60,027 nt of DNA, taken from positions 1-60,027 of the forward strand of contig JBLHGI010000001.1 in NCBI GenBank assembly GCA_047616505.1, written 5' to 3'. The notes under the pieces are model-generated. The model made no database searches, was not told the DNA's origin, and saw only the letters and a list, made by a program, of their open reading frames with translations. The DNA is from Planctomycetota bacterium. GTDB lineage: Bacteria > Latescibacterota > UBA2968 > UBA8231. Made by a program: the position numbers and the translations under genes. Below, piece by piece: positions 2,575 through 60,012 of the stretch (the stretch's first letter is position 1; each line of letters begins with the position of its first letter).

Positions 2575-4389
2575 ATGAGGTTATTATCGGCGCTGGCATT
2601 TACCGTCTTTTTTAGCGCCCCCTTGGCGGCGGAAAATTATGTGAGTCACGGTTATTCGATGTATGGCGAACTAAAGTACGGGCCCGATTTTACGCACTTC
2701 GACTACGTCGACCCAGAGGCCCCCAAAGGCGGTCAAATCCGCTTGGGCTCGGTGGGCACTTTTGACAGCCTTAATCCGCATATCCTCAAAGGTATCACGC
2801 CGCCCAGAGTAGCAACGCTGATCTATGATACGCTGCTGGGGCGCGCCGAAGACGAGGTGTCGACAGAGTATGCCTTGTTGGCCGAAAGCATCGAAGTGCC
2901 AGCAGATTTGAGTTGGGCCATCTACGCGCTGAATCCACGGGCGCGCTGGCACGATGGCCAGCCAGTAACGCCGGAGGACGTAGTCTTCAGCTTTGAGCTG
3001 CTGATGAGCAAAGGGCATCCGGGCTTGCGCGGTTATTATGCGTCTGTGACTAAAGCGGAAAAGGTCGGCGAGCACAAAGTAAAGTTTACGTTTGACGGAG
3101 AGACCAACCGCGAACTGCCCGCCATCGTCGGGCAGCTGCCCATTTTGCCTAAACACTACTGGCAAGATCGCAACTTTGAAGAGACGACGCTAGAGCCACC
3201 TTTGGGTAGTGGTCCTTATAAGGTCGTCGCCGTTGAGGCCGGCCGTTTTATTACCTACGAACGCGTCGAAGACTATTGGGGGCGCGAACTGCCCGTCAAC
3301 AAGGGGCGCTATAATTTTGACCGCGTGCATTTCGATTTTTACCGCGACCAGACGGTGGCTATTGAGGCGCTCAAGGCCGGCGAATTTGACTATCGTTCCG
3401 AGAATAGCTCCAAGGATTGGGCGACGGCTTATAGCGTCCCAGCGCTGGAAGAAGGGCGGCTGATAAAAGAACATATTAACCACCGGCGCGCCACCGGTAT
3501 GCAGGCTTTTTGGCTCAATACGCGGCGTCCGCAATTTGCCGACAAAAGAGTGCGTCAGGCGCTGGCCTATGCCTTTGATTTTGAATGGACCAACAAGAAT
3601 CTGTTTTACGATCTATATGCGCGCAGCGAAAGCTATTTCTCCAACTCGGAGCTAGCTTCTAATGGTCTGCCGCAGGGCCGGGAGCTAGCGATACTAGAAA
3701 TGTATCGCGGCCGGGTGCCCAACGAAGTTTTTACCCAGGCGTACCAACCGCCTACAACGGACGGCTCGGGCAATATCCGCGCCAATCTGCGCACGGCCAA
3801 AAAGCTCTTAGACGAGGCGGGATGGAAGGTGGTCGATGGCGCGCTCAAGAACGAGAAGACGGGCGCTGCCATGGACCTAGAGATTCTATTTAATCGCGCC
3901 TCGTGGGAGCGCATCGCCGCACCGATGGTCGCCAATTTACAAAGGCTGGGCATCGAGGCGACGATCCGTATTGTCGATCGCTCGCAGTATCAGAACCGGG
4001 TGCAGGATTTCGACTACGATCTGATTATGGCCGTACAGGGTCAGAGCCATAGCCCGGGCAACGAGCAGAGCAATTATTGGACGAGTGCGTCTGCTGTCGA
4101 AAAGGGCAGTCGCAACTTTGCCGGTGTTAAAGATCCGGTCGTCGACGAGTTGGTCGAGAAGATTATCGCGGCGTCCGATCGCGCCGAACTCGTAGCGACC
4201 ACGCGGGCATTAGATAGGGTGCTGCTGTGGGGTCACTACACTATTCCAAACTGGTACAGCAAGAGCTTCCGCGTAATTAGCTGGGACAAATTTGGCAAAC
4301 CGGCGCAGAGCGCACCCTATACCGGCGACTACTTTGTCCTGCCACTGACCTGGTGGTACGATGCCGAGCGCTTAGAGCAGAAAAACTAA
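2575..4389 (+). CDS. yejA: Second YejA-like family-5 substrate-binding protein (tandem paralog)
   Basis: AGGAG lies 7 nt before the ATG at 2575. Signal peptide MRLLSALAFTVFFSAPLAA. Collinear with the upstream SBP (PKGGQIRLGSVGTFDSLNPH..., YQPPTTDGSGNIRANLRTAKKLL). Confidence 0.85.
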   Translation: MRLLSALAFTVFFSAPLAAENYVSHGYSMYGELKYGPDFTHFDYVDPEAPKGGQIRLGSVGTFDSLNPHILKGITPPRVATLIYDTLLGRAEDEVSTEYALLAESIEVPADLSWAIYALNPRARWHDGQPVTPEDVVFSFELLMSKGHPGLRGYYASVTKAEKVGEHKVKFTFDGETNRELPAIVGQLPILPKHYWQDRNFEETTLEPPLGSGPYKVVAVEAGRFITYERVEDYWGRELPVNKGRYNFDRVHFDFYRDQTVAIEALKAGEFDYRSENSSKDWATAYSVPALEEGRLIKEHINHRRATGMQAFWLNTRRPQFADKRVRQALAYAFDFEWTNKNLFYDLYARSESYFSNSELASNGLPQGRELAILEMYRGRVPNEVFTQAYQPPTTDGSGNIRANLRTAKKLLDEAGWKVVDGALKNEKTGAAMDLEILFNRASWERIAAPMVANLQRLGIEATIRIVDRSQYQNRVQDFDYDLIMAVQGQSHSPGNEQSNYWTSASAVEKGSRNFAGVKDPVVDELVEKIIAASDRAELVATTRALDRVLLWGHYTIPNWYSKSFRVISWDKFGKPAQSAPYTGDYFVLPLTWWYDAERLEQKN

Positions 4390-4395
4390 CGGGTA

Positions 4396-5496
4396 ATGGG
4401 CACTTATTTACTGCGGCGCTTGCTCTTTATGGTGCCGACGATCTTTGGCATTATGGTCGTCAACTTTATTATCGTACAGGCGGCGCCCGGTGGTCCGGTA
4501 GAACAGGCCCTAGCGGCTATCCAAGGTTTTGGCACCGATGCGACGGAGCGCATCAGTGGCTCGGGCATGGGCGGCGAAACGTTAGAGCTCGATAGTAGCG
4601 GCGATAGCCATAGCAAGTATCGCGGTGCCCAGGGGCTAGACCCAGATTTGATCAAAGAGCTAGAGCGCATGTACGGCTTCGACAAACCGGCACCCGAGCG
4701 CTTCTGGCAGATGATCGGCCAGTATCTGCGCTTTGATTTTGGCGAGAGCTTCTATCGCGACCAAAGCGTGGTCGACCTGATCAAAGAGAAGATGCCGGTG
4801 TCGATTTCGTTGGGGCTGTGGACCACGCTGCTGGTCTATTGTATTTCGATTCCCTTAGGCATTGCCAAGGCCGTGCGCGACGGTTCGCGCTTCGATGTTT
4901 GGACCTCTTCCGTCGTCATTGTCGGTTATGCCATCCCCAGTTTTCTCTTTGCCATTTTGCTGATTGTCGTTTTTGCAGGCGGCCATTATTTGGACTGGTT
5001 TCCGCTGCGCGGCTTGACCTCGACGAATTGGGCCGAACTGGGTTTTTTCGCAAAGATCATCGACTACTTTTGGCACTTGGTCCTGCCCGTCAGCGCCATG
5101 GTCATCGGCGGCTTTGCCGGCCTGACTCTGCTGACAAAAAATTCATTTTTAGATGAGATCAACAAACAGTACGTCATTACGGCACGCGCCAAAGGACTAA
5201 CGGAAAATCGCGTGCTCTACGGTCACGTTTTCCGCAACGCCATGCTCATCGTCATTGCCGGTTTCCCCAGTGCGTTTATCGATATTTTTTTCACTGGCGC
5301 CCTGCTGACGGAAATCATTTTTTCGCTTGATGGCCTGGGATTACTTGGCTACGAAGCGGCGATCAATCGCGACTATCCCGTGATGTTTGCCACGCTCTAT
5401 TTCTTTACGCTCTTGGGTCTGCTGATGCAGTTGATCGGCGATATGACCTATACGTTGGTGGACAGACGCATCGACTTTGAAAGCCGCGAAACGTGA
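4396..5496 (+). CDS. yejB: ABC transporter permease YejB
   Basis: The N-terminus [37 protein letters not shown] closely resembles E. coli YejB as I remember it. Multi-TM BPD-type permease. Confidence 0.9.
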
Positions 5497-6602
5497 GCGA
5501 AAACGTGCAGCAAAGTGCCACTGCTATAGCCCCACCGACGCGCCAGCAGCGCCTATGGGGCATATCGCTGTCGAGGCTAAACCAACGCCGATTGGCCAAT
5601 TTTCGTCGCAACCGCCGCGGTTATTGGAGCACCTGGATCTTCGGGCTGCTCTTTCTGTGCAGCTTGCCCGCCGAGTTTATCGCCAACGACCGCCCGTTGC
5701 TAATTCACTACGACGGCGAGCTGTATTTTCCGGTGCTATTTGCCTATCCGGAAACGGTCTTTGGCGGTGACTTCGAGACCGAGGCCGAGTATCGCGATCC
5801 GTTTGTCATCGAGTTGATCGAAGAGAAGGGTTGGATCGTGTGGCCGCCGATTCCCTATCGCTACGACACCGTCAACTACGAGCTCAAAGAGCCGGCGCCC
5901 TCGTCGCCCGACGGCGACAATTGGCTCGGGACTGACGACCAGGCGCGCGACGTGTCTGCCCGTCTGCTCTACGGCTATCGCATCTCTATACTCTTTGGCC
6001 TATTGTTGACGCTCTTTAGCGCTACGGTGGGCATTGCCGCCGGTGCCGTGCAGGGGTATTTCGGCGGTTGGGTGGATCTGCTCTTTCAGCGTTTTATCGA
6101 AATTTGGCAGGGCATGCCCATGCTCTATCTGCTGATCATTTTGGCCAGCGTCGTCGAGCCGAGCTTCTGGTGGCTGCTGGGGTTGCTCTTAATGTTCCGC
6201 TGGATGGGATTAGTGGGGGTGGTGCGTGCCGAGTTTTTGCGCGCGCGCAATCTCGACTTTGTCAAAGCGGCACGCGCTTTGGGCCAGAGCGATCTGCAAA
6301 TTATGTGGCGTCACGTGCTGCCCAATGCCATGGTTTCGACGTTGACCTTTCTGCCCTTTGTGCTCACAGGTTCGGTGGCAGTGCTGACCTCGCTCGATTT
6401 TCTGGGTTTTGGTCTACCACCTGGCTCGCCCTCGCTCGGCGAATTGCTCAACCAGGGCAAGCGCAATTTGCAGGCGCCGTGGCTGGGATTTTCCGCTTTT
6501 TTTACGCTGGCTATTATGCTGTCGCTCTTGGTGTTTATTGGTGAGGCGGTGCGCGACGCGTTTGACCCGCGCAAGACCTTTGCGGGTGGAGGTGGTAGAT
6601 GA
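5493..6602 (+). CDS. yejE: ABC transporter permease YejE
   Basis: GTGA start/stop overlap with yejB. Contains the [11 protein letters not shown] motif typical of YejE. Multi-TM permease. Confidence 0.85.
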
Positions 6603-10208: not shown

Positions 10209-10639
10209 TTTATTCCTTTCACAATCGAGTGAGGTGAATAGTGAATCGCATCTGCTTAAAGGCCTCTAAGCGTAGTGCTATTGCCTGAAACATGTTCGTC
10301 GTTGGATTCTCTTCCAGTAGCCGACCGGCAAGAGGATCATAAATAAATGCACCATCACTTCGGTTTATCTATTTACGAACATGGTATGATAATCATATTT
10401 TCGCTTCTGTAAATGTGTTAGTTGTTGTATCCAAGCTTAGAGAGGAATTGGCAGAGCGTGCGGTTGTCCGTAGTAGACAGTTAGTATTCTGGTGTAGGTG
10501 CAATAAAGGAAATACCCTGTCGGAGAGCATTGAGATTGCGACATCACCGTGCGCTACCGCTCGCCATTCTGTTTATATATTTACTGAGCTTTATAGCTCA
10601 GCAAAACAGCCTAAGGTTGCCGAAAAAACCAGCCTTAGC

Positions 10640-10750
10640 CCCCTTAGCCTTCGCGCTGCTGCACGTGCAAATTCCAGTTTTGCCAATAGTACTTCACTGG
10701 GTCATCCACCGCCCAATCGGCATAGATCTCTTCCCAATTGACCCAACCCA
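10640..10750. repeat. Direct repeat copy R2 (functional 3' end of the PhyH gene)
   Basis: Partner of 9065-9175. It is preceded by a CCTTAGCC microduplication (10633-10640 and 10642-10649). Confidence 0.95.
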
Positions 10751-11531
10751 TATGCGGCAGCAGCGAATCCTCACGGACCGGATGGCTCAGCGGCTGGTAG
10801 CGATAGTCGACGGAGAGACGCAGCTGGTCTAGCGTCTGGTTGTCGCGGCCTTGGTGCACGGCTAGGCTGTGCAATACGAGCACGTCGCCGCAGGCAAAGT
10901 CGCCGCCAAACCACTCGGTATGCTCGTCTATACTCACGGCGCGTCCCCCGGCGCCTTGGGCCTCGTGTACGTCCATCATGCCGCGCGTATGGCTGCCGCG
11001 CGCCACGGCCAACGAGCCGAGTTCGACGGGGCAGTCTCCCAAGGGGATCCACGCCGTCCAGGTTTCGTCGCTGCCGCCGATATAGAAATGGTCCTGGTGC
11101 GGTGGCGTCGAGTGCGTCTGTGTTTGCGGGAACATTAGACGGCAGATATTGCGGCTGTGGGGCAGTGCCTTTTCGTCGAAGAGCGTCGCCAACATGGTCG
11201 TGATCGAATCGTGCAGCGCCAAGGCGTGGAAGTCGCGCAGCTTGAGCACATCGCAATAGAAGTCCTGCCAACGCGAGTCCCCCGATTCAATCACAGATAA
11301 ATTCTCGCGGGCAATGCCGTCTATCGCTTCAGTGCCCTCTTTTAACCAGCCGTGCTCTTGGCAGGTGTGCAGAATTTGTCGGCGCACATTGAACAAGGCC
11401 GCAGATGGCAGCAGCCCCTTGAAGAAGAGACAGCCGTCTTCGCGTGCGCGCTGGCGCAGTGCCTGCGGATCGTCTAATAGTGACGTCGAGTTGGCATAGG
11501 GTTTTATATTGTGCATCGTGGTCATAGCCAT
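10644..11531 (-). CDS. Phytanoyl-CoA dioxygenase (PhyH) family Fe(II)/2-oxoglutarate oxygenase
   Basis: HxD facial triad (TPPHQDHFY), distal His (HSLAVHQGRDN) and a PhyH-like N-terminus. Confidence 0.8.
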   Translation of the reverse strand: MAMTTMHNIKPYANSTSLLDDPQALRQRAREDGCLFFKGLLPSAALFNVRRQILHTCQEHGWLKEGTEAIDGIARENLSVIESGDSRWQDFYCDVLKLRDFHALALHDSITTMLATLFDEKALPHSRNICRLMFPQTQTHSTPPHQDHFYIGGSDETWTAWIPLGDCPVELGSLAVARGSHTRGMMDVHEAQGAGGRAVSIDEHTEWFGGDFACGDVLVLHSLAVHQGRDNQTLDQLRLSVDYRYQPLSHPVREDSLLPHMGWVNWEEIYADWAVDDPVKYYWQNWNLHVQQREG

Positions 11532-47993: not shown

Positions 47994-48009
47994 TGGCATC
48001 TGTCTTGCT
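47994..48009 (+). promoter_or_regulatory. Sigma54 (-24/-12) promoter candidate upstream of the MFS gene
   Basis: TGGCAT-ctgtc-TTGCT, with GG (47995-47996) and GC (48007-48008) at the canonical 12-nt register. It lies 79 nt upstream of the ATG at 48087. Confidence 0.5.
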
Positions 48010-48086: not shown

Positions 48087-49361
48087 ATGCGCGATAAAGC
48101 GTTTCGCTTAGGCGTGCTCAACGGCACCATCTTTGAGGTGGTTATTATCATCATGCAACCGAGCTTGGTGCTCTCGGCGTTCTTTCTAAAACTGACGGAC
48201 TCGACCTTTATAGCCGCCTTGCCTGCGGCGCTTATGCACTTGGGCGGTCTCTGGCCACAGCTAATTGTTGCCCATATTGCCGAGGGCATGGAGTACAAGA
48301 AGCCGATTTACGTGTGGGCTGGCATTGCGCGCACTGTCACCTTGGCGGCGATGGCCGTGGTGACGTACGAGATGGTTGGTGTCGAAACAAGTGCCTTGGT
48401 GCTGTTCTTTGCCGCCGTTTACTTCGTCTATTCTTCGGCCAACGGCGCCGGTGGCATTGGTTTTATGGATATGGTCGCCAAAACCATTCCGGCGACGCGG
48501 CGTGGTCGCTTTATGGGGTTGCGCGGTTTTTATGGGGGTCTAATGGGGCTGGCGACGGGTTTTTACGTGCGTTATATGCTCGGTGAGACCGGACCGGCCT
48601 TCCCGCTTAACTATGCTTTGCTCTTTTTTACGGCGACCTTTTTCTTGCTCGTTGCGGTGGCTGTCTTTGCCGCCGTTCCCGAACCCGCTGGCCGCATTGT
48701 AGAGCAGCGCACGCCCTTTAGCCAACTGTTTCGCCGAGGGTGGGCCACTCTCCAGGAAGACCGCAACTACCGTCTACTGGTTTGGGTGCGGATGCTGCTC
48801 TCGGCGACGATGGTTGGCCAGGTTGTTTTTGTGCCTTATGCGCTCAAGGCGTTGCTCTTACCCGAGTCGATTATTGGCGTGCTGATGATTTCGGCGACCT
48901 GTTTTACTTTGCCATCAAATTTTCTCTGGGGCCATATAGGTGATCGCTATGGCAATCGCTTACTCCTGCTGACGGGGACGCTCTTTTTTCTTGCTGCTCC
49001 GCTTTGCGCATTGGTCTCGTGGTATGCGCCGGCATATCATCCGTTCTTTTTCTTGCCTGAGATGTACGATCTGCGCGCGTTGCTCTTCGTAGCGGCTTTT
49101 GTGTTGGCTGGTGTCGGTATGCGCGGTTCCTTTATGGGCTCTTCGAATTATTTTCTCGAAATTGCTCCAGAAGATCGGCGTCCTTCGTATCAGGCTTTTA
49201 TGCGTGTGCTGCAGGCTCCAGCGGCATTGGGACCGCTTCTGGGGGGTAGCATTGCCGAACAAATTTCTTTCCAGGCGACCTTTTTGTTGGCTTGTAGTGG
49301 TGGTTTAGCTACCTGTATCTTGGTCTGGCGCTTGGGAGAGCCACGGGGCCAAAAGCCATAA
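48087..49361 (+). CDS. MFS transporter
   Basis: About 12 predicted hydrophobic segments and a typical MFS loop, TRRGRFMGLRG, between TM2 and TM3-like positions. Confidence 0.8.
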   Translation: MRDKAFRLGVLNGTIFEVVIIIMQPSLVLSAFFLKLTDSTFIAALPAALMHLGGLWPQLIVAHIAEGMEYKKPIYVWAGIARTVTLAAMAVVTYEMVGVETSALVLFFAAVYFVYSSANGAGGIGFMDMVAKTIPATRRGRFMGLRGFYGGLMGLATGFYVRYMLGETGPAFPLNYALLFFTATFFLLVAVAVFAAVPEPAGRIVEQRTPFSQLFRRGWATLQEDRNYRLLVWVRMLLSATMVGQVVFVPYALKALLLPESIIGVLMISATCFTLPSNFLWGHIGDRYGNRLLLLTGTLFFLAAPLCALVSWYAPAYHPFFFLPEMYDLRALLFVAAFVLAGVGMRGSFMGSSNYFLEIAPEDRRPSYQAFMRVLQAPAALGPLLGGSIAEQISFQATFLLACSGGLATCILVWRLGEPRGQKP

Positions 49362-51059: not shown

Positions 51060-52922
51060 CTAGAGCCCTTTGAGGATTTTCCGACACGCATCGCCAATGG
51101 CTCCGCGCTGTTGGTCGCCGAATAGCTCGGGGTTTTGAGCTATTTCGTCTAAGGCCGGTCGCGCGTATTCGCCTAGTGCCCGCACCTGGTCCAATAGTTC
51201 GGGGTAGTTTTCACTCGCATCGAGGCGAATGAATAGTGCGGCTAAGAGTGCGAGTAATTCGGGGCTGTCGGGGTCGTACTCGCGCAGCTCGATGAAGTGG
51301 TGATGGCGCGTGCTAAAGCCGGAAGGATCGGAACTGTAGGCGCGTGCATTTTCAGGCAGGTATTCGGCAAGGCGCTCAACTACGGGAGCGAGATGTTTTT
51401 TGATCACGACATCCTCTTGGCCGGACAGCTCGCGGTATTGCTCTAAAAAGCGCGTGTGATACATCGGGTGGCGATCGAGCATGGCCAGCAGGCCGCAGAG
51501 ATGTTCGTTCTCTTCGTTTGGCTCGGGCTTTTCCACTAGACCTTGGCCGGCATCAATGAGCACGCGCGCGCTGCCAGCTAGCTCTACCCTGCGTTTAAAG
51601 TCGGGCGCCTGCGAAGGGCGCAAGCGCACTTCGATCATGCGGTAGAGCATCTCCTGCACTTCGCGCATATTTTCCTCTTGGGCGCGCTCGTCCATCACGG
51701 CGAATTGTTCGAAGAATTCGTAGCGCTTTTGCTGCAGAAAATACTGGTGCAGTCCGTTGAAATGATGGCCCAGCGATCCGGGCATCTTGGACGTGAAGGT
51801 CGTCGAATAGCTCTGTAGCATTTTGCCGAAGCCATCGACAATATTGTAGCCGTCGTAGCGGTTGGCCGTCACATAGCTATAGCCATAGACTTGCTCTTCG
51901 GCGACGGTGGCGAGAAAATCGCGCATGCCATCGGCGCCAATAAGAATGAGTTTTTCGAGCAGGTCTTCGGTGCGCAGCGAGCGGCTGAGTTTAAAGCGTG
52001 CCTCGTCCCACAGGTCGTGCATGATATCTGCGGTCGTCTGCGGCTCTAGGGGCAGCGAGAGTTCTTCGGCCAGGCGAAAGGCCGCCGTGTGCACGATATC
52101 GCGGTCGATGGCAAAATACGTCGGATACTGGTAGATCTCACAGAGGTCGTACAATTTGAGGTGAGACCAGAAGCGCTCGCGGCTTTCGTCGAATATTTCA
52201 TCGGTTATATCGTAGGGATCGCGCTCGCGAATGGAGGGTCTCAAACGGTAGAGGGCATTGGCGTAATAGCGAAAAAACACGCGAATTTCGTCTTCTTTTT
52301 TGTCGTCGTTATCGTCGAGGTGTTTGTTGAGCCGGCGCAGCGTGTCCTTGATGATATAATAACCAATTGTATAGCGTGTTTTGAGATGGTCCTGGAGCCG
52401 GCGCACGGTTTCGAGGATGAGCAGATAGTTGAGTAATGGCCAGGCTTCTTGGATAATGATCTCGCTGATCGCCCAATAATCATAGCCCTTCTCAAAGGCT
52501 TCGCGCAGCACCATTTCGGGAATGTAGAGCGTGCGTCGCGTGCGCCCTACGTGAAAGGATTGGTGTTCGCGCGGGTGGTGGAAAACCAGCAGCGAAGGGC
52601 CTTGCACCAGCGTGACGCTGACGTTGTTGTCGAGCAGGGCATCGATCAGATAGGGTGGTAGTTGGCGGATGGCGCTGTAGAAGAACTTGACCATGTCGTG
52701 GCCGGCGTAAAAACGCGGCAGCTTTTCGTCGGGCATGAGCTGGCCGTTGCGCAGGCGGGTCTGTTGGCCAAAGATGATGGTCTTGGGATTGGCGCGAATC
52801 GTGTCGTTGACTTCCGCGTGTGGTATGGCACCTTCGCGCAGACCGGTGTTGGGGCGGTCGTCGCTATTGGAGTAGAGGTTGGGGTTTTCTGGGAAGACTT
52901 GCTGTGGGAGTCTATATTGCAT
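51060..52922 (-). CDS. Hypothetical protein (621 aa, no recognisable motif)
   Basis: I chose the ATG at 52922 (MQYRLPQQ...). The longer ORF-track start at 53138 would overlap the divergent PhyH gene and encodes low-complexity sequence. Confidence 0.6.
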   Translation of the reverse strand: MQYRLPQQVFPENPNLYSNSDDRPNTGLREGAIPHAEVNDTIRANPKTIIFGQQTRLRNGQLMPDEKLPRFYAGHDMVKFFYSAIRQLPPYLIDALLDNNVSVTLVQGPSLLVFHHPREHQSFHVGRTRRTLYIPEMVLREAFEKGYDYWAISEIIIQEAWPLLNYLLILETVRRLQDHLKTRYTIGYYIIKDTLRRLNKHLDDNDDKKEDEIRVFFRYYANALYRLRPSIRERDPYDITDEIFDESRERFWSHLKLYDLCEIYQYPTYFAIDRDIVHTAAFRLAEELSLPLEPQTTADIMHDLWDEARFKLSRSLRTEDLLEKLILIGADGMRDFLATVAEEQVYGYSYVTANRYDGYNIVDGFGKMLQSYSTTFTSKMPGSLGHHFNGLHQYFLQQKRYEFFEQFAVMDERAQEENMREVQEMLYRMIEVRLRPSQAPDFKRRVELAGSARVLIDAGQGLVEKPEPNEENEHLCGLLAMLDRHPMYHTRFLEQYRELSGQEDVVIKKHLAPVVERLAEYLPENARAYSSDPSGFSTRHHHFIELREYDPDSPELLALLAALFIRLDASENYPELLDQVRALGEYARPALDEIAQNPELFGDQQRGAIGDACRKILKGL

Positions 52923-52941
52923 TGAAGGCCATGTGCGCAAG

Positions 52942-53000
52942 GGGCAATTAGGGCTTCCCTTTCGCTCATTCTCGCCCGACAGGGAAATCCCTAATTGCCC
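52942..53000. repeat. Long imperfect inverted repeat in the divergent control region
   Basis: GGGCAATTAGGGCTTCCC (52942-52959) versus GGGAAATCCCTAATTGCCC (52982-53000). The 12-bp outer cores are perfectly complementary. The loop is 22 nt. Confidence 0.85.
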
Positions 53001-53128
53001 TCGGACTATAGGTGGATGCAGTTTTGACGTTAGTGGAGAAAAAAAGTAAGGTATGGGAATGAGATTACCAAAGTAAATTGGGAGTGGGGGTTGAGGGGAA
53101 ATAGAGACTAAGGATAAAGGAGTGTGGG

Positions 53129-53911
53129 ATGAGTACATCCGCTAGTGCGTTAAAAGAGCAGTTTGATCGCGATGGCTATGCTATTTATGAGAATGTTATC
53201 GATGCGGATTTGGTGCGCGAGGCCAGTGACCATGTCAATTGGCTATTGCAGAAGAACCCGGATCTCAGGCCCGAGCAGCTGCACAATAACTTGATGACGA
53301 ACGACCCGTTTTGGGTGCGCTTGATCAGCGACGAGCGCCTGCTCAATATCGCCGAGCAATACCTGGGGCCGAATATTGCGCTCTTTGCCTCGCATTATAT
53401 CAGCAAACCGCCGGGCGATGGTCAGCCCGTGCTCTGGCATCAGGACGGGTCATATTGGCCGCTGGAGCCGATGGAGGTGGTGACGCTGTGGCTGGCGGTC
53501 GACGATTCGCTGCCGGAAAATGGTTGCATGCGCGTGGTGCCGGGCACACAGCATATGGAGCTGCACGAAATGAAGCGACACACGGACGAAGCCAATGTGC
53601 TCAGCTCGCGCATGGATCCCGAATTAGTCGATGATAGCAAGGCGGTGGATATTGCATTAAAAGCGGGCGGTGTGTCGGTGCACCATCCCAGTATCGTACA
53701 TGGTTCCAACGCCAATGTTTCGGATGTGAGGCGCTGTGGTTTGACGATTCGCTATATACCAACGACGACGCGCATCGTCAGCGACAAACCGTGGCCGAGC
53801 GGGTTCTTATTGCGCGGTGAGGCGGTAGAAGGCGTTAACGACTATTTGCCTCGGCCCCGCTATATAGCGGGCGAGCACATGGCGTTTAGAGGGTGTGAGG
53901 CATGGGCCTGA
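53129..53911 (+). CDS. PhyH family dioxygenase
   Basis: FDRDGYAIYENVI, VLWHQDGSYW (HxD), VVPGTQH and SIVHGSNAN. AAAGGAG RBS. Confidence 0.85.
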   Translation: MSTSASALKEQFDRDGYAIYENVIDADLVREASDHVNWLLQKNPDLRPEQLHNNLMTNDPFWVRLISDERLLNIAEQYLGPNIALFASHYISKPPGDGQPVLWHQDGSYWPLEPMEVVTLWLAVDDSLPENGCMRVVPGTQHMELHEMKRHTDEANVLSSRMDPELVDDSKAVDIALKAGGVSVHHPSIVHGSNANVSDVRRCGLTIRYIPTTTRIVSDKPWPSGFLLRGEAVEGVNDYLPRPRYIAGEHMAFRGCEAWA

Positions 53912-53959
53912 GCTTTTAGGGTCGCCTCTCGACCCCCTCTAGTTCATCGCATAAATTAC

Positions 53960-53989
53960 AAAACGCGCCTCCAATTGGGGGCGCGTTTT
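53960..53989. terminator. Bidirectional rho-independent terminator
   Basis: AAAACGCGCC (53960-53969) / GGCGCGTTTT (53980-53989). Pairing can extend to leave an AATT loop. A/T runs on both sides. It lies between the convergent PhyH gene (+) and the small ORF (-). Confidence 0.8.
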
Positions 53990-54069
53990 GCTGTGTAAAC
54001 AAAAGACTTTTCAGTCGGAAGGAAGAAAGGATACCCTTTTGATCACACAGTTCTAATCAATCATTAGCT

Positions 54070-54303
54070 CTATTTGGCTACAAAGTAGGTCAGCATCGAA
54101 ATAGTGGCACACACCGCGAAGATTAGGCTGTACAAATTTATCGGGGCCTTTTTTTCAAAGCCGGGCTGATGGCGGTTGTGCACAGTGTGGTGGCTAGCTC
54201 TGCCTTTGGCAGGACGTGCAGCAGTTGCTGTAGATCTGCCAATGGGTTCGGTCCCATACAGAGCGTTAATCGCCGCGTCAGAATAGTCTTTGTTTTCACT
54301 CAT
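54070..54303 (-). CDS. 77-aa tail-anchored small membrane protein (hypothetical)
   Basis: GGAAGGAAGAG RBS 6 nt before the ATG, a sigma54-type promoter ~47 nt upstream, a terminator downstream, and a C-terminal TM (LYSLIFAVCATISMLTYFV). Confidence 0.6.
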   Translation of the reverse strand: MSENKDYSDAAINALYGTEPIGRSTATAARPAKGRASHHTVHNRHQPGFEKKAPINLYSLIFAVCATISMLTYFVAK

Positions 54304-54348
54304 AGTGCACTCTTCCTTCCGAGAAGAATTATTAGTTCACCAAGATTT

Positions 54349-54364
54349 AGCAAGTGCTATGCCA
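54349..54364 (-). promoter_or_regulatory. Sigma54 (-24/-12) promoter
   Basis: The minus strand reads TGGCAT-agcac-TTGCT with canonical GG/GC spacing. Confidence 0.65.
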
Positions 54365-54429
54365 TGAATTAAAGAGCGCCGTATAGTATTGTTTTATAAC
54401 AGCATACAATAATATAGTACATAATCATA

Positions 54430-54490
54430 ATGTCTCATAATGTCTCATAAAAAAGACATTATGAGACATATGTGAGACATTATGAGACAT
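54430..54490. promoter_or_regulatory. Phased octamer array / 18-bp perfect inverted repeat: candidate enhancer (UAS) for the adjacent sigma54 activator, or the terminator of its gene
   Basis: ATGTCTCA at 54430 and 54440. TGAGACAT at 54462, 54473 and 54483, with a partial AGACAT at 54454. ATGTCTCATAATGTCTCA (54430-54447) is the exact reverse complement of 54473-54490. Confidence 0.6.
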
Positions 54491-54495
54491 GAATG

Positions 54496-56346
54496 TTATC
54501 TTTTTGTTTGGATATTAAAATCTGATAGGCGGCGATAGAAGGTGGCTCGGCTCATTCCCAATAATCGGGCCGCCGCCGCTCGGTTGTCGCGTGTGCGTTT
54601 AAGCGCTGCCAAGATGCGGCTCTCCTCGTCCATTAGCTGTAGGGAGTCTGAGAGGGGCAGCTTTTGTCCGTTGGAGAGTTGAGTATTTTGCTGAGGAGGC
54701 GTATATGCTCCCGATGCTCCCGTTCCCAGCCGGCTAGCGTGGACTGGCAAGGCCTTTATCTGGCGAAGCGGGAATGGTTCACTCTCCGTAGTCTCCGGCG
54801 GTAGGTCATCAGCTTGGATAACGGCAGTCGAACAGCGAAAGAGAGCAAACTCTATGGCGTTGCGCAACTCGCGCACATTGCCCGGCCACCAATAATCCAT
54901 CAGCAGTCCCATCGCCTGCGGGCTGATATCGCGCACGCTCTTGCCGCTGGTCGCCCCGACTTCGCGCAGAAAGGCCGCCGTTAGGGCGGGTATATCTTCG
55001 CGGCGCTCGCGTAGAGGGGGCAGCAGGATGCGCGCGATGCGCAGCCGGTAGAGTAGATCTTCGCGAAAACGGCCCTGCTCCACTTCGATGCTCAAGTCGC
55101 GGTGGGTGGCGGCGAGAATACGCACATCTACTTTGCGCGGTGTGTTTTCGCCTAAGCGCGTCACTTCTTTTTCCTGTAGTACGCGCAGTAGACTACCCTG
55201 TATATCGAGCGGAAGATCGCCGATTTCATCTAGCAAAAGCGTGCCGCCATTGGCCGCTTCCAGCACGCCCTGGTGATCGCTAATGGCCCCGGTAAAAGCA
55301 CCGCGCACGTGGCCGAAGAGCTGTGAGCCGACGAGTGTATCGGTAAGTCCGGCACAGTTGAGGGCGAGGAAGGGCTTGTCGCTGCGGTGGCTAGTCGAGT
55401 GCAGAGCGCGGGCGACTAGCTCCTTGCCAGTACCGGTCTCGCCCTGTATTAACACGGTCCAGTCGGCATTGGCTACTTCGCGAATCTGCTGATATACCAG
55501 GCCCATGGCCTTACTGCGCCCGACTAAGTCATAAAATTGGGTCTTTTCGTCTATCTGACGGCGCAAATCGTGCATTTCGGACACGTCGAAGAAGAGAAAT
55601 ATTTTGCGCTGTGGGTCGCGCGGATCGTCCAGCACTTCTACATCAATCCAGCGATTCTGGCCCCCTAGGCCCTCGACGCGGGCGATGACTTTTTTGCGCT
55701 TGTCTGGGAGTTTCCGCGCCATTGATTTTAGCTGCGTGTAATCTTCGGCAGAAAAGGGAAAGGCCTGCTGCCAGCGCTGGTCCAAGACATCGCGTCCGCG
55801 CCCTCCGAAAAATTGCTGGCTGGCGACCTCGCTTATAAAGATGATGCGTCCTTCGGCATTGGTCAGTGCTGTGCCCATGGGCAATTGGTGCAAAATGGAC
55901 TGTAGATCATCGTGGCTTTGCTCGAGCTGCTGGATCATTCCTCCGACCTGCGTCTGTGCTCGTCGGCGCTCTGCGAGCGTGCGCACTTGTTGTTGCGCAA
56001 TGGCGAGGCGGATGCGCAATAGCCCTACATCTATGGGTTTGGTCAGGTAGTCATCGGCACCGGCATTTAAAACGGTCTCGAGGTCCTCTTTTGTGTGGCG
56101 CGCCGTAATAACCAACACGACGGTGACGTCCCCCGTCGGCGTGTGGCGCACCTTTTGGCATAGCTCTAGGCCACTCATACCAGGCAGCATCCAATCCGTC
56201 ACTATCAGCGGAAAACTCTCGCGCTGATAGTCGGACCAAGCGGCCTCGGCGTCGGGGTAGGCGACGACCTCGTGACCAAGCGCCTCTAGCACCTGGGTGC
56301 ACAGAAACTGCGTGCTGCGGTTGTCCTCAATGAGTAATACTCGCAT
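54496..56346 (-). CDS. Sigma54-dependent response regulator (REC-PAS-AAA+-Fis HTH enhancer-binding protein)
   Basis: REC domain (MRVLLIEDN...[10 protein letters not shown]), PAS-like segment, Walker [22 protein letters not shown] motif, and C-terminal [20 protein letters not shown]. Confidence 0.9.
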
Positions 56347-56405: not shown

Positions 56406-57473
56406 TTAGTTGTCCAGCGTTTGCCAAGAGCTTGGGTCGAGGCCCAGACCTAAACCCGCCTGGCCGATGCGCTGCCACGTGGTGTCGTCGATGGGAATTC
56501 CCTCGGCCTGGCGCTGGCTGGCCGAGCGGAACTCCGGCTCGCCGGGCAGCAGAATCTCCCCTATGCGTGGGTCGATGCGACTCGTGTGGACGTGGGCGAT
56601 GAACGTTTCCAACTCGTCAAAATACGCCTCGCGATCGGTGAAGTGGTCGATATTATACGCGGTGATGCACAGCCCATTGCTCTGCATTACGGTCGCGCCG
56701 GCGGCACAACCCTGGCCGCTGAGTGCGCCGCCTAGTATTTCAACTATAAAACTCAGACAATACCCCTTGTAGGCAAAGGGCCCGCCCAACGGCAACATGG
56801 CACCCGGCGGTTTACCTAAGTAGGCCTGCGGGTCGGTAGATGGATTGCCCTCGGCATCGATGATACACCCAGCGGGCAAGGGGACGCCTTTGTTGGATGC
56901 CACGCGTATTTTGCCCTCGGCACAGACGGACGTCGTCATATCGACGAGAATGGGATCGGCGTTGCGCCGAGGTGCGGCAAAGGCGATGGGATTGGTGCTG
57001 AGTTTGCCATCGAGTCCGCCGTAGGGAGTGATCTGGCGTCCTAGGTTTCCCGCGTTGCAAAAGACGAGGCCGATCTGTCCCTGGCGGGCGATTTGCAGCG
57101 GATAGGCGCCGACGCGGCCGACGTGGCTAGTATTGCGCAGTGTCACGGTCGCCACGCCGTACTCGCGCGCCTTGTCGGCCGCTAACTGGGTGGCAAAGGC
57201 GCCGCCGATCTGGCCTAAGGCGCCGCCGCCATTTACGGTAGCGGCACAGGGGCGATCCGTTTCGACGTGTGGTTGGCCCTTCGGGTCAAAGATGCCGTCT
57301 TGAATGTGGCGAATATATTCGTAGATGCGAATCTGGCCGTGCGAGTCGTGGCCGTAGAGTGAAGAGTCTACGAGGTGGTCAACGACTGTGCGCGCATCCG
57401 TTGGCGAACAGCCAGCTTTTTCGAAAAGCTCATAACCGATGCGGCGCAGTTCGTCGGCGTCTACTCTGGGCAT
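56406..57473 (-). CDS. Ldh_2 family (malate/L-lactate/sulfolactate dehydrogenase-like) oxidoreductase
   Basis: SSLYGHDSHGQIRI motif, about 355 aa, typical of the family. Confidence 0.8.
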   Translation of the reverse strand: MPRVDADELRRIGYELFEKAGCSPTDARTVVDHLVDSSLYGHDSHGQIRIYEYIRHIQDGIFDPKGQPHVETDRPCAATVNGGGALGQIGGAFATQLAADKAREYGVATVTLRNTSHVGRVGAYPLQIARQGQIGLVFCNAGNLGRQITPYGGLDGKLSTNPIAFAAPRRNADPILVDMTTSVCAEGKIRVASNKGVPLPAGCIIDAEGNPSTDPQAYLGKPPGAMLPLGGPFAYKGYCLSFIVEILGGALSGQGCAAGATVMQSNGLCITAYNIDHFTDREAYFDELETFIAHVHTSRIDPRIGEILLPGEPEFRSASQRQAEGIPIDDTTWQRIGQAGLGLGLDPSSWQTLDN

Positions 57474-57507: not shown

Positions 57508-58308
57508 TTAGGCGTTTTTTAGCACATTATCTATCTCATCGCTCCACGTGCCCTCCACGCGTACGCCATATTCACTCAGGCCACCGGTGGCATCGGGTCC
57601 GGTTAGCAGCGGTTTTTCGTCGGCTAATCGCGCTTCGGATACATAGTCGCGATGCAAAAAATGAAAGGCCATACCGGCGCGCTCGTCCTCGGTTTTGTTG
57701 GCTTTGGTCGAGTGTGCGGTACCATAACAGAAAAAAGCTACGCCGCCCGCGGCTAGCTCGATGGGCACGGCGCGCTCTTCGGGCACACTGCAATAGATGT
57801 GATGGTTGGAGTTGGGATCGCGGCTGTGTTCGTATTGTTCCTCGTGCGAGCCGGGCACGACGTGGATGGTGCCATTGGCCACGGTCGCGTCGTGTATGGC
57901 GATCCACATGGCGGTGCCGCGCAGTGGGTCGCGTATCTTAAAATAGGCGTTGTCCTGGTGCCAAGAGGTGCCCACGCCATGCTGGCCGGGTTTGAGAAAC
58001 ATTTGGTCCAGGTGCAAGAGGGTGGGAGTGCCGATGAGCTGGGTGATGGCCTCTCTGACGCGCTCGTCGAAGGGCAGGGCGCGAATTAGGTCGCTCTTGT
58101 CGTAGAGGGGTATCAGCTGCAGGTTGGCTTTGGTATCTGAAAGGGTTTCGCCATCGCCTTCGGTGGCTACGTTGCGCACGAGGCCCTCGCGTTTGAATCG
58201 CTCGACTTCGGCTTGTAGTGCCTGAACTTCGCGTGGGTCGAAGAAGGCGGGGGCAGTGGTATAACCCTCCTGTTGGAATTGGGTTATTTGTTGGTCGGTT
58301 AGTGGCAT
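57508..58308 (-). CDS. PhyH family dioxygenase
   Basis: LTDQQITQFQQEGYTTAPAFF, TSWHQDNAYF (HxD), VVPGSHEE and YGTAHSTKAN. Confidence 0.85.
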   Translation of the reverse strand: MPLTDQQITQFQQEGYTTAPAFFDPREVQALQAEVERFKREGLVRNVATEGDGETLSDTKANLQLIPLYDKSDLIRALPFDERVREAITQLIGTPTLLHLDQMFLKPGQHGVGTSWHQDNAYFKIRDPLRGTAMWIAIHDATVANGTIHVVPGSHEEQYEHSRDPNSNHHIYCSVPEERAVPIELAAGGVAFFCYGTAHSTKANKTEDERAGMAFHFLHRDYVSEARLADEKPLLTGPDATGGLSEYGVRVEGTWSDEIDNVLKNA

Positions 58309-58347: not shown

Positions 58348-60012
58348 TCAATAGTTTTTTTCCGCCGCTGGTTCCTGCAAGTCGTTCGGCAGTACAATCC
58401 TCATGGTAGTGCCTTTGCCGATCTCGCTTTCCGCTTCCATACGGCCTCGGTGTTGGCGCATGATATTATAGCATATGGACAGTCCTAAACCCGTGCCAAC
58501 ACCGACGCCCTTCGTAGTAAAACCAGGGTCGAAGATGCGCTCCAGGTGTTCTGGTGCAATGCCCTTGCCGGTATCTGTCACCTCTATTTTGACCTCGCCT
58601 TCTTCAAGGCGAGTGCGCAGCGTGATTTTACCCGAACCATCGATGGCCTGCGCGGCGTTGTTTATGATGTTCATAAAGACCTGATTGAGCTGGTTGGCGA
58701 AGCAGTTGATCTGCGGCAGGTCGCCGTATTCTCGTATCACTTCAATGCGATTTTTTATGACGTGATCGAGCAACGTTAGCGTGCTGTCGAGCCCTTCGTG
58801 TAAGTCGGTACTTTGGAACTCGGCCTCGTCGAGACGCGCAAAATTGCGCAAGCTACGCACGATGCGTCCAATGCGCTCGCTGGCCATGACAGCCACGTCG
58901 TTGTTGCGGCTGAGTACTTCGAGTGCGCGGCCCAAGCGCTTCTCGTCGGCCAGTGTATCGGCGTGTTTTTCGAATGCGGTGCGCACGATTTCTATAGAGC
59001 GTGCAGAGGTGTTAGAGGCGCTGTTGATGGCGCCGATGGGGTTGTTGATCTCGTGGGCGACACCGGCCACTAAGTTGCCGAGTGAGGCCATTTTCTCCTG
59101 CATGATCAGCTGTTGTTGTGCCTCTTGTAATTTCCTGAGCGTTTCTTCGAGGTCGCTGTTTTTTTCGGCCAATGTGCGGTTGGCCTGGCTGACCTCTTCT
59201 TGGCGATCGCGCAGGGCGATGGTCATTTGGTTAAAAGAATGGGCTAGGTTGCCGATCTCATCGCTGCTGCCAATTTCTAGCCTCACGCCGGTATCGCCTT
59301 CGGCTACGCGCTGGGCCGCCTGCTCTAATTCTTGCACTGGCACGGCGATATAGCGCACCAACCAAGCGCCAATAAAAGCAGATAATAGCACGGTGGCCAA
59401 GAGCAGGGTCGAGGTAAAGGCGCGGGTGGCGCGAAAGGCCGTCTCGGCGCGCTGGGCTGCCGCCAATGTATTGTCGCGGTTGGCGCGAACTAATGCCTCT
59501 AAATCGGCACTGAACTCGGCGTAGATACGGCCCATATCGCCGTTGAGTAGGTCGAGGGCTTGTTGGCGTTCGTTTTTTAGCGAGAGGCGAAAGAAGTCGA
59601 CGAAGAGTTCTTGGTAGGCATCCCATCTGCCGTCGAAAGCGGCATAGAGCTGTGCTTCTTTTGGGCCGTAGAGGTCGTTGGCCTCGGCGCGCTGTCGCAG
59701 ATCGGCGTAGGTGTCGAGACTGTTGTTGATGCGGTCGATGAGTGCGACCATGCGGTCGGCGCGCAGCTGTTTTTCTTCTTCGCTGGTAGCGACGGCGTGC
59801 TGCAGTTGCTCGGTGCGCAGGGCGGCCGTGCCGAGATTGGCTTCGGCGATGGCCATGGCGCGCGGTAGCCAGCTATTGCTGATGCGATCGATCTCGTCCT
59901 TGATGGCGGACATGCGGTTGATGGAGTAGAAATGCACCACAGCCGCAATGAGTAGGATAGAACCGAAGCCGATGCTCTGTTTGACGCCGAGTCGCAGGTC
60001 GCGGAAGCGCAT
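58348..60012 (-). CDS. Sensor histidine kinase (TM - four-helix-bundle sensor - TM - HAMP - HisKA - HATPase)
   Basis: N-terminal TM plus an MCP-like 4HB region, a second TM (LLLATVLLSAFIGAWLV), HAMP, H-box GVAHEINNPIG, N-box NIINNAAQA and G-boxes DTGKGI / GTGLGL. Confidence 0.9.
   Translation of the reverse strand: MRFRDLRLGVKQSIGFGSILLIAAVVHFYSINRMSAIKDEIDRISNSWLPRAMAIAEANLGTAALRTEQLQHAVATSEEEKQLRADRMVALIDRINNSLDTYADLRQRAEANDLYGPKEAQLYAAFDGRWDAYQELFVDFFRLSLKNERQQALDLLNGDMGRIYAEFSADLEALVRANRDNTLAAAQRAETAFRATRAFTSTLLLATVLLSAFIGAWLVRYIAVPVQELEQAAQRVAEGDTGVRLEIGSSDEIGNLAHSFNQMTIALRDRQEEVSQANRTLAEKNSDLEETLRKLQEAQQQLIMQEKMASLGNLVAGVAHEINNPIGAINSASNTSARSIEIVRTAFEKHADTLADEKRLGRALEVLSRNNDVAVMASERIGRIVRSLRNFARLDEAEFQSTDLHEGLDSTLTLLDHVIKNRIEVIREYGDLPQINCFANQLNQVFMNIINNAAQAIDGSGKITLRTRLEEGEVKIEVTDTGKGIAPEHLERIFDPGFTTKGVGVGTGLGLSICYNIMRQHRGRMEAESEIGKGTTMRIVLPNDLQEPAAEKNY

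Follow-up and report, generated by a model that had tools for sequence, protein, structure and literature searches.

A conserved sigma-54-type promoter and a candidate enhancer array beside a predicted tail-anchored microprotein gene in Latescibacterota

The 60,027-nucleotide stretch of Latescibacterota DNA examined here, which we call the window (the whole of contig JBLHGI010000001.1, assembly GCA_047616505.1), carries on its minus strand a response regulator gene followed directly by a much smaller transcription unit. In the direction of transcription, the order is the regulator gene (54496-56346), an array of octamers that forms a putative enhancer, or upstream activating sequence (UAS; 54430-54490), an A+T-rich spacer (54365-54429), a sigma-54 type −24/−12 promoter (54349-54364), a predicted 5′ untranslated region (UTR; 54304-54338), a gene for a 77-residue microprotein (54070-54303), a 3′UTR element complementary to the gene's own Shine–Dalgarno (SD) region (54015-54026), and an intrinsic terminator (53959-53990). 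An initial annotation, made from the letters of the sequence, had read this region as a self-contained sigma-54 output module of a two-component system. The observation is confirmed, and the comparisons described below, which are of sequences, support that interpretation of the locus.

Versions of the locus were recovered from other metagenomes by exact and near-exact protein look-ups, and nine distinct versions, with regulator identity down to 69%, were compared. The regulator is 91% identical to that of the window in L025, 84% identical in L027 and L152, and 69% identical in L028 and L029; L001-L005 are carriers of a 95% identical microprotein allele, and L153 and L154 are two short contigs carrying the locus. 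In every recovered version, down to 69% regulator identity, an open reading frame (ORF) for 74-78 residues lies 3′ of the regulator gene in the same orientation. Among these orthologues, identity in the intergenic DNA averages only 58%. A scan of GTDB genomes with the regulator returned no close relative apart from a partly deleted locus, L017, in the Latescibacterota metagenome-assembled genome (MAG) contig JAYYUU010000287.1, whose flanking genes are about 70% identical to those of the window; there, only about the first 66 residues of the regulator remain, and the small gene is absent too. At positions 5983-6320 of L017, PhyH and Ldh_2 genes are followed by the frameshifted stub of about 66 residues, which abuts the convergent PhyH gene, and this joint loss could be either a real deletion or an artefact of MAG assembly. 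The module is absent beside regulator homologues of 55-57% identity (L150, L151).

The regulator, as had been proposed, is an enhancer-binding response regulator. It consists of a receiver (REC) domain, a PAS domain, an AAA+ sigma-54 interaction domain in which the GAFTGA loop is intact, and a Fis-type helix–turn–helix (HTH); its Pfam matches are Response_reg (PF00072), PAS_4, Sigma54_activat (PF00158, 1e-66), AAA_lid_14 (PF25601 is among the matches), and HTH_8 (PF02954). Bacterial enhancer-binding proteins of the NtrC family of response regulators are recognized by a receiver at the N terminus, a GAFTGA loop in the AAA+ domain, and HTH_8 at the C terminus, and the protein has all three; in NCBI it carries the name [quoted passage not shown] Assignment to a particular member of that family was tried and rejected, as the protein falls below every named NCBIfam cut-off, those for the NtrC, GlrR, ZraR, AtoC, LuxO, and PspF equivalogs included; its best score is 381.7 bits for NtrC (cut-off 558.6), and it scores 295.6 for GlrR (cut-off 763). 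Its TAA stop codon occupies 54498-54496, and the octamer array starts six bases later.

The promoter, TGGCATAGCACTTGCT, lies at 54364-54349 on the minus strand, and the TGGCAT-AGCAC-TTGCT that had been noted in −24/−12 register is indeed there. The sigma-54 consensus is TGGCAC-N5-TTGCW, with its GG and GC 10 nt apart (PMC12316311). The element has exactly this separation (GG at 54363-54362, GC at 54351-54350) and matches TGGCAY-N5-TTGCW at 16 of 16 positions; two such matches occur in the 60 kb, against 0.16 expected. Across all nine versions, the −24/−12 element is the best-conserved feature of the diverged intergenic region. TGGCA and T(T/C)GC (that is, TGGCAY-N5-TYGC) are invariant, whereas the five-base spacer (AGCAC, AGCAA, AGTGC, AGCAG, AATGC, or GGTCC) and the flanks vary; the variants are TGGCATAGCACTTGCT, TGGCACGGTCCTTGCG, and forms ending in ACTCGCT, AGCAATTGCT, AGTGCTTGCT, AGCAGTTGCT, AATGCTTGCT, and TTGCA. 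The distance from promoter to ATG is likewise constant, at 44-46 nt in all versions. The initial annotation had placed a ribosome-binding site (RBS) some 47 nt after the promoter. An RBS is present (GGAAGGAAGAG, 54320-54310), but it begins about 29 nt after TTGCT, and the distance of about 46 nt is that from the −12 element to the ATG. If the C of the GC is taken as position −12, transcription is predicted to start near 54338, with a 5′UTR of 35 nt; the predicted leader is 33-35 nt long in all orthologues, and its GGA-rich SD is conserved.

The second match to TGGCAY-N5-TTGCW in the window, TGGCATCTGTCTTGCT at 47994-48009 on the plus strand, is perfect and lies 78 nt upstream of a major facilitator superfamily transporter gene (48087-49361), with no GAGACAT sites nearby. 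As a conserved promoter it was rejected because its GG is lost in the 91%-related L025, and the match is probably due to chance or specific to the strain. That it is not conserved in L025 indicates that conservation of the promoter studied here is no trivial by-product of relatedness.

Upstream of this promoter lies the array, in which octamers phased at about 10 bp had been described. Five exact copies are found within 54430-54490, with start-to-start distances of 10-11 bp, and the supposed fourth copy of one of the two octamers proves to be a partial one, AGACAT, at 54454-54459. On the minus strand, from 54490 to 54430, the array reads ATGTCTCA-ta-ATGTCTCA-cat-ATGTCTCA-ta-ATGTCT-tttttta-TGAGACAT-ta-TGAGACAT. 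The TGAGACAT/ATGTCTCA octamer occurs six times in the 60-kb window, where 1.10 ± 1.00 occurrences are expected and none of 100 shuffles reaches six, and five of the six copies fall within 61 bp (54430 and 54440 on the minus strand; 54462, 54473, and 54483 on the plus strand). The reported 18-bp inverted repeat (54430-54447 / 54473-54490) has perfect arms, which sit inside a 27-nt inverted repeat of 85% identity; a second perfect inverted repeat, of 16 bp, joins 54430-54445 to 54454-54469 across a gap of 8 nt. The distance of about 100 bp given earlier between array and promoter holds when it is measured from the array centre, whereas the array edge is only 66 bp away.

What is shared among the orthologues is a half-site, GAKACA(T), which recurs in every one of them and stays at a nearly constant distance from the promoter. 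Measured in six versions, the distance from the −24 GG to the promoter-proximal copy upstream of it is 71-74 bp; five of these versions have a second GAKACA site 81-83 bp from the GG, and this site is inverted (TGTCTC) in L028. The same paired-site layout is seen in L152, L153, and L154. At the array, three to six half-sites are packed into 60-70 bp, in comparison with 0.3-0.9 per kb across the loci. Enhancers are marked by repeated or dyad sites held at a constant position some 80-150 bp upstream of the −24/−12 element, and the array, which extends from about −152 to about −92 relative to the predicted start, displays them. The intervening spacer is 66 bp long and 74% A+T in the window, and 64-67 bp and 74-88% A+T in six orthologues; its sequence drifts, and it presumably serves as a looping or bending segment. 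The strict consensus for integration host factor (IHF), WATCAANNNNTTR, is absent from every spacer examined.

The left arm of the array (54447-54490 in the window, 560-600 in L001) is the one place where the window and L001, about 96% identical elsewhere in this region, diverge strongly, the window having three and a half copies and L001 two. The difference looks like gain or loss of a 10-11-bp unit, which would suggest rapid turnover of the enhancer. When metagenome contigs were scanned for TGAGACATNNTGAGACAT, at least 120 stretches matched; among the matches listed, there was no combination of an array with a −24/−12 element, and the present locus was not among them. One unrelated contig, L080 (Ga0157374_10340605), carries at 1385-1455 the arrangement AATGTCTCA-tttgag-AATGTCTCA ... 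cg-TGAGACAT-tt-TGAGACAT, two copies facing two head-to-head as in the window. That array lies 37 nt from the contig end, so any promoter or gene beyond it is out of view, and the contig encodes no homologue of the window proteins.

The small ORF runs from an ATG at 54303 to a TAG at 54072-54070 and is annotated as hypothetical protein ACI906_002194. Judged by its pattern of substitution, it is protein-coding and under purifying selection. The ratio of non-synonymous to synonymous substitution rates (dN/dS) is 0.12 between L025 and L027, 0.13 between the window and L025, and 0.28 between L028 and L029, with changes mostly at third positions, and the length stays within 74-78 residues across the orthologues. 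Seventeen positions are invariant in the seven aligned microproteins (M1, D6, S8, A10, A14-L-Y-G17, S37, H39, F49, Y58, I61-F-A63, C65, and L71). Among them is a retained N-terminal motif, D-x-S-x-A-x3-ALYG (D6, S8, A10, A14-L-Y-G17), which belongs to an N-terminal helix and is followed by a linker rich in His, Arg, and Lys. The C-terminal transmembrane helix that had been predicted corresponds to a hydrophobic segment at residues 57-75 (mean Kyte–Doolittle value 1.94), after which only two residues remain. In the orthologues, too, the C-terminal 19-20 residues are hydrophobic (mean value of the 19-mer 1.9-2.2), with zero to two residues after them, and the N-terminal part carries a net charge of +3 to +10, with three to five histidines next to the membrane. 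The protein thus has the single C-terminal hydrophobic segment, the lack of a signal peptide, and the basic N-terminal part that are expected of a C-tail-anchored protein; by the positive-inside rule, its N terminus is predicted to face the cytoplasm. An AlphaFold model made from only three sequences contains helices at residues 3-16 and 57-76 joined by a disordered linker (pLDDT, the predicted local distance difference test, 62.6; pTM, the predicted template-modelling score, 0.26), with block-mean pLDDT values of 72-90 over residues 51-77.

The transcript would end at the intrinsic terminator at 53959-53990, a strong bidirectional element, as the initial annotation had it, with U-runs on both sides and stable folds on both strands (−23.8 kcal/mol, z −5.2, on the minus strand; −26.9 kcal/mol, z −6.9, on the plus strand). 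It is shared with a convergent PhyH gene (53129-53911, plus strand). A simple consensus scan missed the terminator, and folding found it. In the orthologues, the hairpin and U-run expected of an intrinsic terminator are kept while the stem sequences differ, with folding energies of −24.8 to −34.1 kcal/mol. Between stop codon and terminator, the 3′UTR contains UCUUCCUUCCGA (54015-54026, minus strand), a perfect 12-nt complement of the RBS region at 54322-54311. None of 5000 shuffles reaches 12 nt of such complementarity, and one reaches 11. All seven clade-A versions retain the segment CTTCCTTCCGA, although the 3′UTR on either side of it diverges, and in each of the four clade-A mRNAs folded (window, L001, L025, and L027) the element is paired with the SD in the minimum-energy structure of the full-length predicted transcript. 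L028 and L029 have only the weaker CCUUCCUC opposite AAGGAAA. Both pairing partners are invariant in clade A, so that no test of covariation is possible there. By analogy with icaR, base pairing between the RBS and this anti-SD element may add a further control on translation, possibly as a form of self-silencing.

At the level of sequence and its conservation, the locus has been shown to comprise a sigma-54-type promoter, a positioned array of sites, a monocistronic coding unit with its own terminator, and an adjacent activator with all of the motifs needed. We therefore consider it probable, with a fair margin for error, that the locus works as an enhancer-dependent (sigma-54) transcription unit for a small protein of the inner membrane. 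In the mechanism that we propose, the REC domain would be phosphorylated, most likely by a histidine kinase encoded at 58348-60012, and the regulator would assemble on the array of GAKACA(T) half-sites, between about −152 and −92. The A+T-rich spacer of 64-67 bp would then loop, so that the AAA+ ring could contact, through GAFTGA, the sigma-54 holoenzyme on TGGCAT-N5-TTGCT and open the closed complex at the promoter in an ATP-dependent manner. Looping and contact of GAFTGA with the sigma-54 holoenzyme are the established mechanism of enhancer-binding proteins. Transcription from near 54338 to the terminator would produce a monocistronic mRNA of about 380 nt, an anatomy that follows from sequence and conservation, and the mRNA would encode a 77-residue protein predicted to have a cytoplasmic N terminus and a single C-terminal transmembrane helix.

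Several observations weigh against this reading or limit it. No RpoN box was found in a six-frame translation of the 60-kb window, and the intact GAFTGA of the activator gives only indirect support for an rpoN gene in the genome. Binding of the regulator to the array is something that we infer from adjacency and co-conservation, plus the joint absence in L017. The layout of the array is flexible: in clade A, one or two reverse sites come after two to four forward ones; L028 has a palindrome, ATGTCTCA-T-TGAGACAT; and in L029 the half-sites point in the same direction. The spacing within the inner inverted pair TGTC-Nx-GACA varies as well (x = 10 in the window and, with TATC as the left arm, in L001; 9 in L025 and L027; 7 in L028; and 5 in L029). 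These variations in layout and inner spacing point to no single binding geometry, and a GlrR-type TGTC-N10-GACA was rejected as a conserved feature because the six spacings (10, 10, 9, 9, 7, and 5) do not keep to 10 nt. As for the microprotein, the ORFs of the window and the 95% allele differ by four non-synonymous changes and one synonymous change, which are too few to interpret and provide no evidence of constraint, and its structural model is of low confidence, too poor to serve in a search for similar folds. It matches no family in Pfam, NCBIfam, PADLOC, or PDB, in keeping with the earlier remark that it has no recognized motif, and has no homologues outside the clade. A phmmer search of 1.84 billion representatives found two proteins, and a profile of the seven sequences searched against 5.8 billion found seven clusters, all in the same clade; the family as a whole amounts to about eight sequence clusters, each of them in this synteny. 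A single NCBIfam match, at 14.7 bits against a cut-off of 865, was dismissed as noise. Finally, the kinase gene is missing from the L028 locus, which weakens a strict model of feedback on the kinase and argues against the kinase as an obligatory partner.

Other explanations of the same features have to be set beside a sigma-54 unit that is switched by the adjacent regulator. The octamer palindrome might act mainly as an RNA hairpin that terminates, pauses, or stabilizes the PhyH–Ldh_2–regulator transcript, with the small ORF expressed chiefly by read-through. The array of the window does fold stably as RNA (−34.4 kcal/mol, z −7.8), starting 6 nt past the stop codon; U-rich tracts follow weaker hairpins in L025 and L027; and read-through from an activator gene into a small downstream target has been documented for cbrB–crcZ (PMC5113210). 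The stem in the window, however, has no U-run after it, and in the 96%-identical L001, where the left arm is rearranged, the fold falls to −16.2 kcal/mol (z −1.4), with z values of −2 to −3.5 in other orthologues. Moreover, it is the sequence of the half-sites that is conserved and not their pairing: the partners nested in L027, TGTCTC with GATACA and TGTATC with GAGACA, show no co-variation at the variable position. The first sites lie 65 nt (L028) and 98 nt (L029) past the stop codon, yet the proximal site remains 73-74 bp from the promoter. The sites thus track the promoter and not the stop codon, and the scenario that the initial annotation had named as its own refutation, in which the palindrome is merely the terminator of the regulator gene, fits poorly with a hairpin that is lost in so close a strain. 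We regard a primarily RNA-level role as improbable and favour recognition of the array as DNA by a protein, though the array may have a secondary effect on the regulator transcript, and read-through like that of cbrB–crcZ may occur.

The functional product might also be an RNA, regulatory or of dual function in the manner of CrcZ, GlmY, or Qrr, with the CU-rich 3′UTR element as a seed for the SDs of other mRNAs and the ORF secondary. Known activator-adjacent sigma-54 targets are often small RNAs (sRNAs), and the 3′UTR block CCTTCCTTCCGACTGAAAA has changed less than the sequence around it and is followed closely by a strong terminator, an arrangement known from sRNAs derived from 3′UTRs. But ORF length, start, SD, and specific residues are conserved, with dN/dS at 0.12-0.28, and no Rfam family is matched at threshold, the only hits being sub-threshold generic hairpins (miRNA precursors). 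The best complement of the CU-rich element, moreover, is the gene's own RBS, with the 12 perfect nucleotides that no shuffle attained. An RNA as the principal product is accordingly about as improbable, in our judgment, as a hairpin function for the array. Least probable of all, we think, is that the promoter is real but activated by an enhancer-binding protein encoded elsewhere, while the GAKACA array binds another factor, such as a repressor or nucleoid protein. The Fis-type HTH of this regulator family is too uniformly conserved for its specificity to be predicted, and direct repeats phased at 10-11 bp would be an uncommon target for dimeric HTH_8 proteins, both of which leave room for another factor. 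Against it, the regulator and the module adjoin in all orthologues even as the neighbours change (HicAB and FG-GAP genes in L028, a caspase-like gene in L027), both are missing together in L017, and homologues at 57% identity or less lack the module.

If the locus is indeed a sigma-54 unit for a small membrane protein, the function of that protein can be considered by analogy. The microprotein could be a membrane-anchored modulator of a membrane partner, either its own kinase, in feedback like that of MgrB on PhoQ, or a transporter, binding it through the conserved N-terminal helix and the His-rich juxtamembrane segment; we put this forward tentatively, as a possibility that is less likely true than false. 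Homology to an MgrB-like modulator was not found in Pfam, NCBIfam, PADLOC, or PDB. A more elaborate version, in which the microprotein is the sole output of the two-component system, a cytoplasm-facing tail-anchored connector that clamps its own kinase, another membrane sensor, or a transporter, and in which the mRNA is silenced by RBS/3′UTR pairing until a second signal arrives, is a speculation that we consider unlikely. Were it true, an uncultured phylum would have a feedback circuit built on a microprotein, driven by sigma-54 and gated at two levels.

The genes around the unit form a partly conserved neighbourhood. Upstream of the regulator, all on the minus strand, lie an Ldh_2-family oxidoreductase gene that adjoins it (56406-57473; Pfam, 2.6e-101), a gene for a PhyH-family Fe(II)/2-oxoglutarate dioxygenase (57508-58308; assigned by Pfam), and the sensor histidine kinase gene (58348-60012), whose product has a 4HB_MCP periplasmic sensor, HAMP, HisKA, and HATPase_c by Pfam. 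Gaps in this kinase–PhyH–Ldh_2–regulator string are 35-60 nt. The kinase is likely the partner of the regulator; its gene is upstream in L006/7/9, L025, L027, and L029. Two PhyH-family dioxygenases and the Ldh_2 oxidoreductase thus flank the regulator, and PhyH–Ldh_2–regulator, beginning with the PhyH gene, constitutes the conserved core of synteny; neither of the PhyH proteins nor the Ldh_2 protein reaches an NCBIfam equivalog cut-off, and their substrate might be a pointer to the signal that the system senses. Autoregulation was considered and rejected, as there is no sigma-54 promoter or GAKACA array upstream of the PhyH–Ldh_2–regulator string, so that no target other than the small gene can be seen in the locus; the string is preceded in L028 and L029 by sigma-70-like elements, TTGACA/TTGACG ... 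TCTAAT. A protein of about 620 residues without a Pfam or NCBIfam family (51060-53138, minus strand) adjoins the convergent PhyH in most orthologous loci and is 69% identical in L017. In L027, a Peptidase_C14 (caspase-like) gene at 3535-5634 is inserted between the kinase and PhyH genes. In L028, where FG-GAP genes are among the changed neighbours, a HicA/HicB pair (10407-10998) takes the place of the convergent PhyH, and a porin-like gene is missing along with the kinase gene.

We know of no cultured representative of the Latescibacterota and of no sigma-54 regulon described for them, and our search of the literature on sigma-54 in Latescibacterota or Latescibacteria found no usable report. 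For this phylum, the locus provides a clean sigma-54 promoter, validated by comparison among orthologues, together with GAKACA(T) as a candidate enhancer motif, and it identifies an unannotated family of tail-anchored microproteins whose sole known context is the present sigma-54 switch. Its architecture is a textbook one and introduces no new principle; it is of value for annotation and as a compact system suited to transfer into a heterologous host. Should the protein turn out to act in feedback or as a connector, MgrB-type logic would be extended to enhancer-dependent systems. The conserved complementarity between RBS and 3′UTR, in turn, offers a testable case of 5′–3′ mRNA pairing outside the Firmicutes.

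This kind of circuit is familiar and its regulatory design ordinary; the new elements are the phylum and an output that consists of an orphan tail-anchored microprotein. The closest parallel in layout is CbrA/CbrB–crcZ of Pseudomonas, where the target likewise lies directly downstream of the activator gene on the same strand, with its own RpoN-dependent promoter in a short intergenic region and possible read-through (PMC5113210). There, however, the product is a non-coding, protein-sponging RNA (PMC5113210), whereas the target here is protein-coding and evolves under purifying selection; CbrB has many other targets and is not orthologous to the present regulator, which is below all NCBIfam cut-offs. 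In GlrK/GlrR (QseE/QseF)–glmY of Enterobacteriaceae, too, the sigma-54 activator belongs to a two-component system, a small gene neighbours the operon of that system, and several activator sites precede a −24/−12 promoter (PMC3045617). The GlrR half-sites TGTC/GACA (PMC3045617) resemble the TGTCTC/GAGACA of the present locus, and the window has one TGTC-N10-GACA. In contrast to the present locus, glmY encodes an sRNA, lies upstream of the operon, and needs IHF sites (PMC3045617); here, no strict IHF consensus was found, the N10 spacing is not conserved, and the regulator falls short of the GlrR model.

The remaining parallels concern single features. Like icaR mRNA of Staphylococcus aureus, in which 5′UTR and 3′UTR pair, the predicted transcript has a pyrimidine-rich 3′UTR motif complementary to the gene's own SD region (PMC3868564), although icaR is an unrelated gene in another phylum (PMC3868564) and the pairing here is predicted only. 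PspF–pspG of E. coli shares the monocistronic sigma-54 promoter, the single UAS, and a small integral membrane protein as product (PMC3709507). PspF, however, has no receiver domain and is controlled by PspA, and pspG is far from pspF (PMC3709507); the present microprotein matches no Pfam family, PspG included. The parallel that bears on function is PhoQ/PhoP–MgrB. MgrB is expressed from a sigma-70 promoter under an OmpR-family regulator and acts via its periplasmic part (PMC2789325), whereas the protein here is predicted to have almost nothing outside the membrane and has no sequence similarity to MgrB, and an interaction with the kinase, whose gene is missing at one orthologous locus, is purely hypothetical. 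What the two have in common is a small single-pass membrane protein induced, in our case by prediction, by a two-component system (PMC2789325), and it is in this respect that MgrB serves as the model for the role proposed here.

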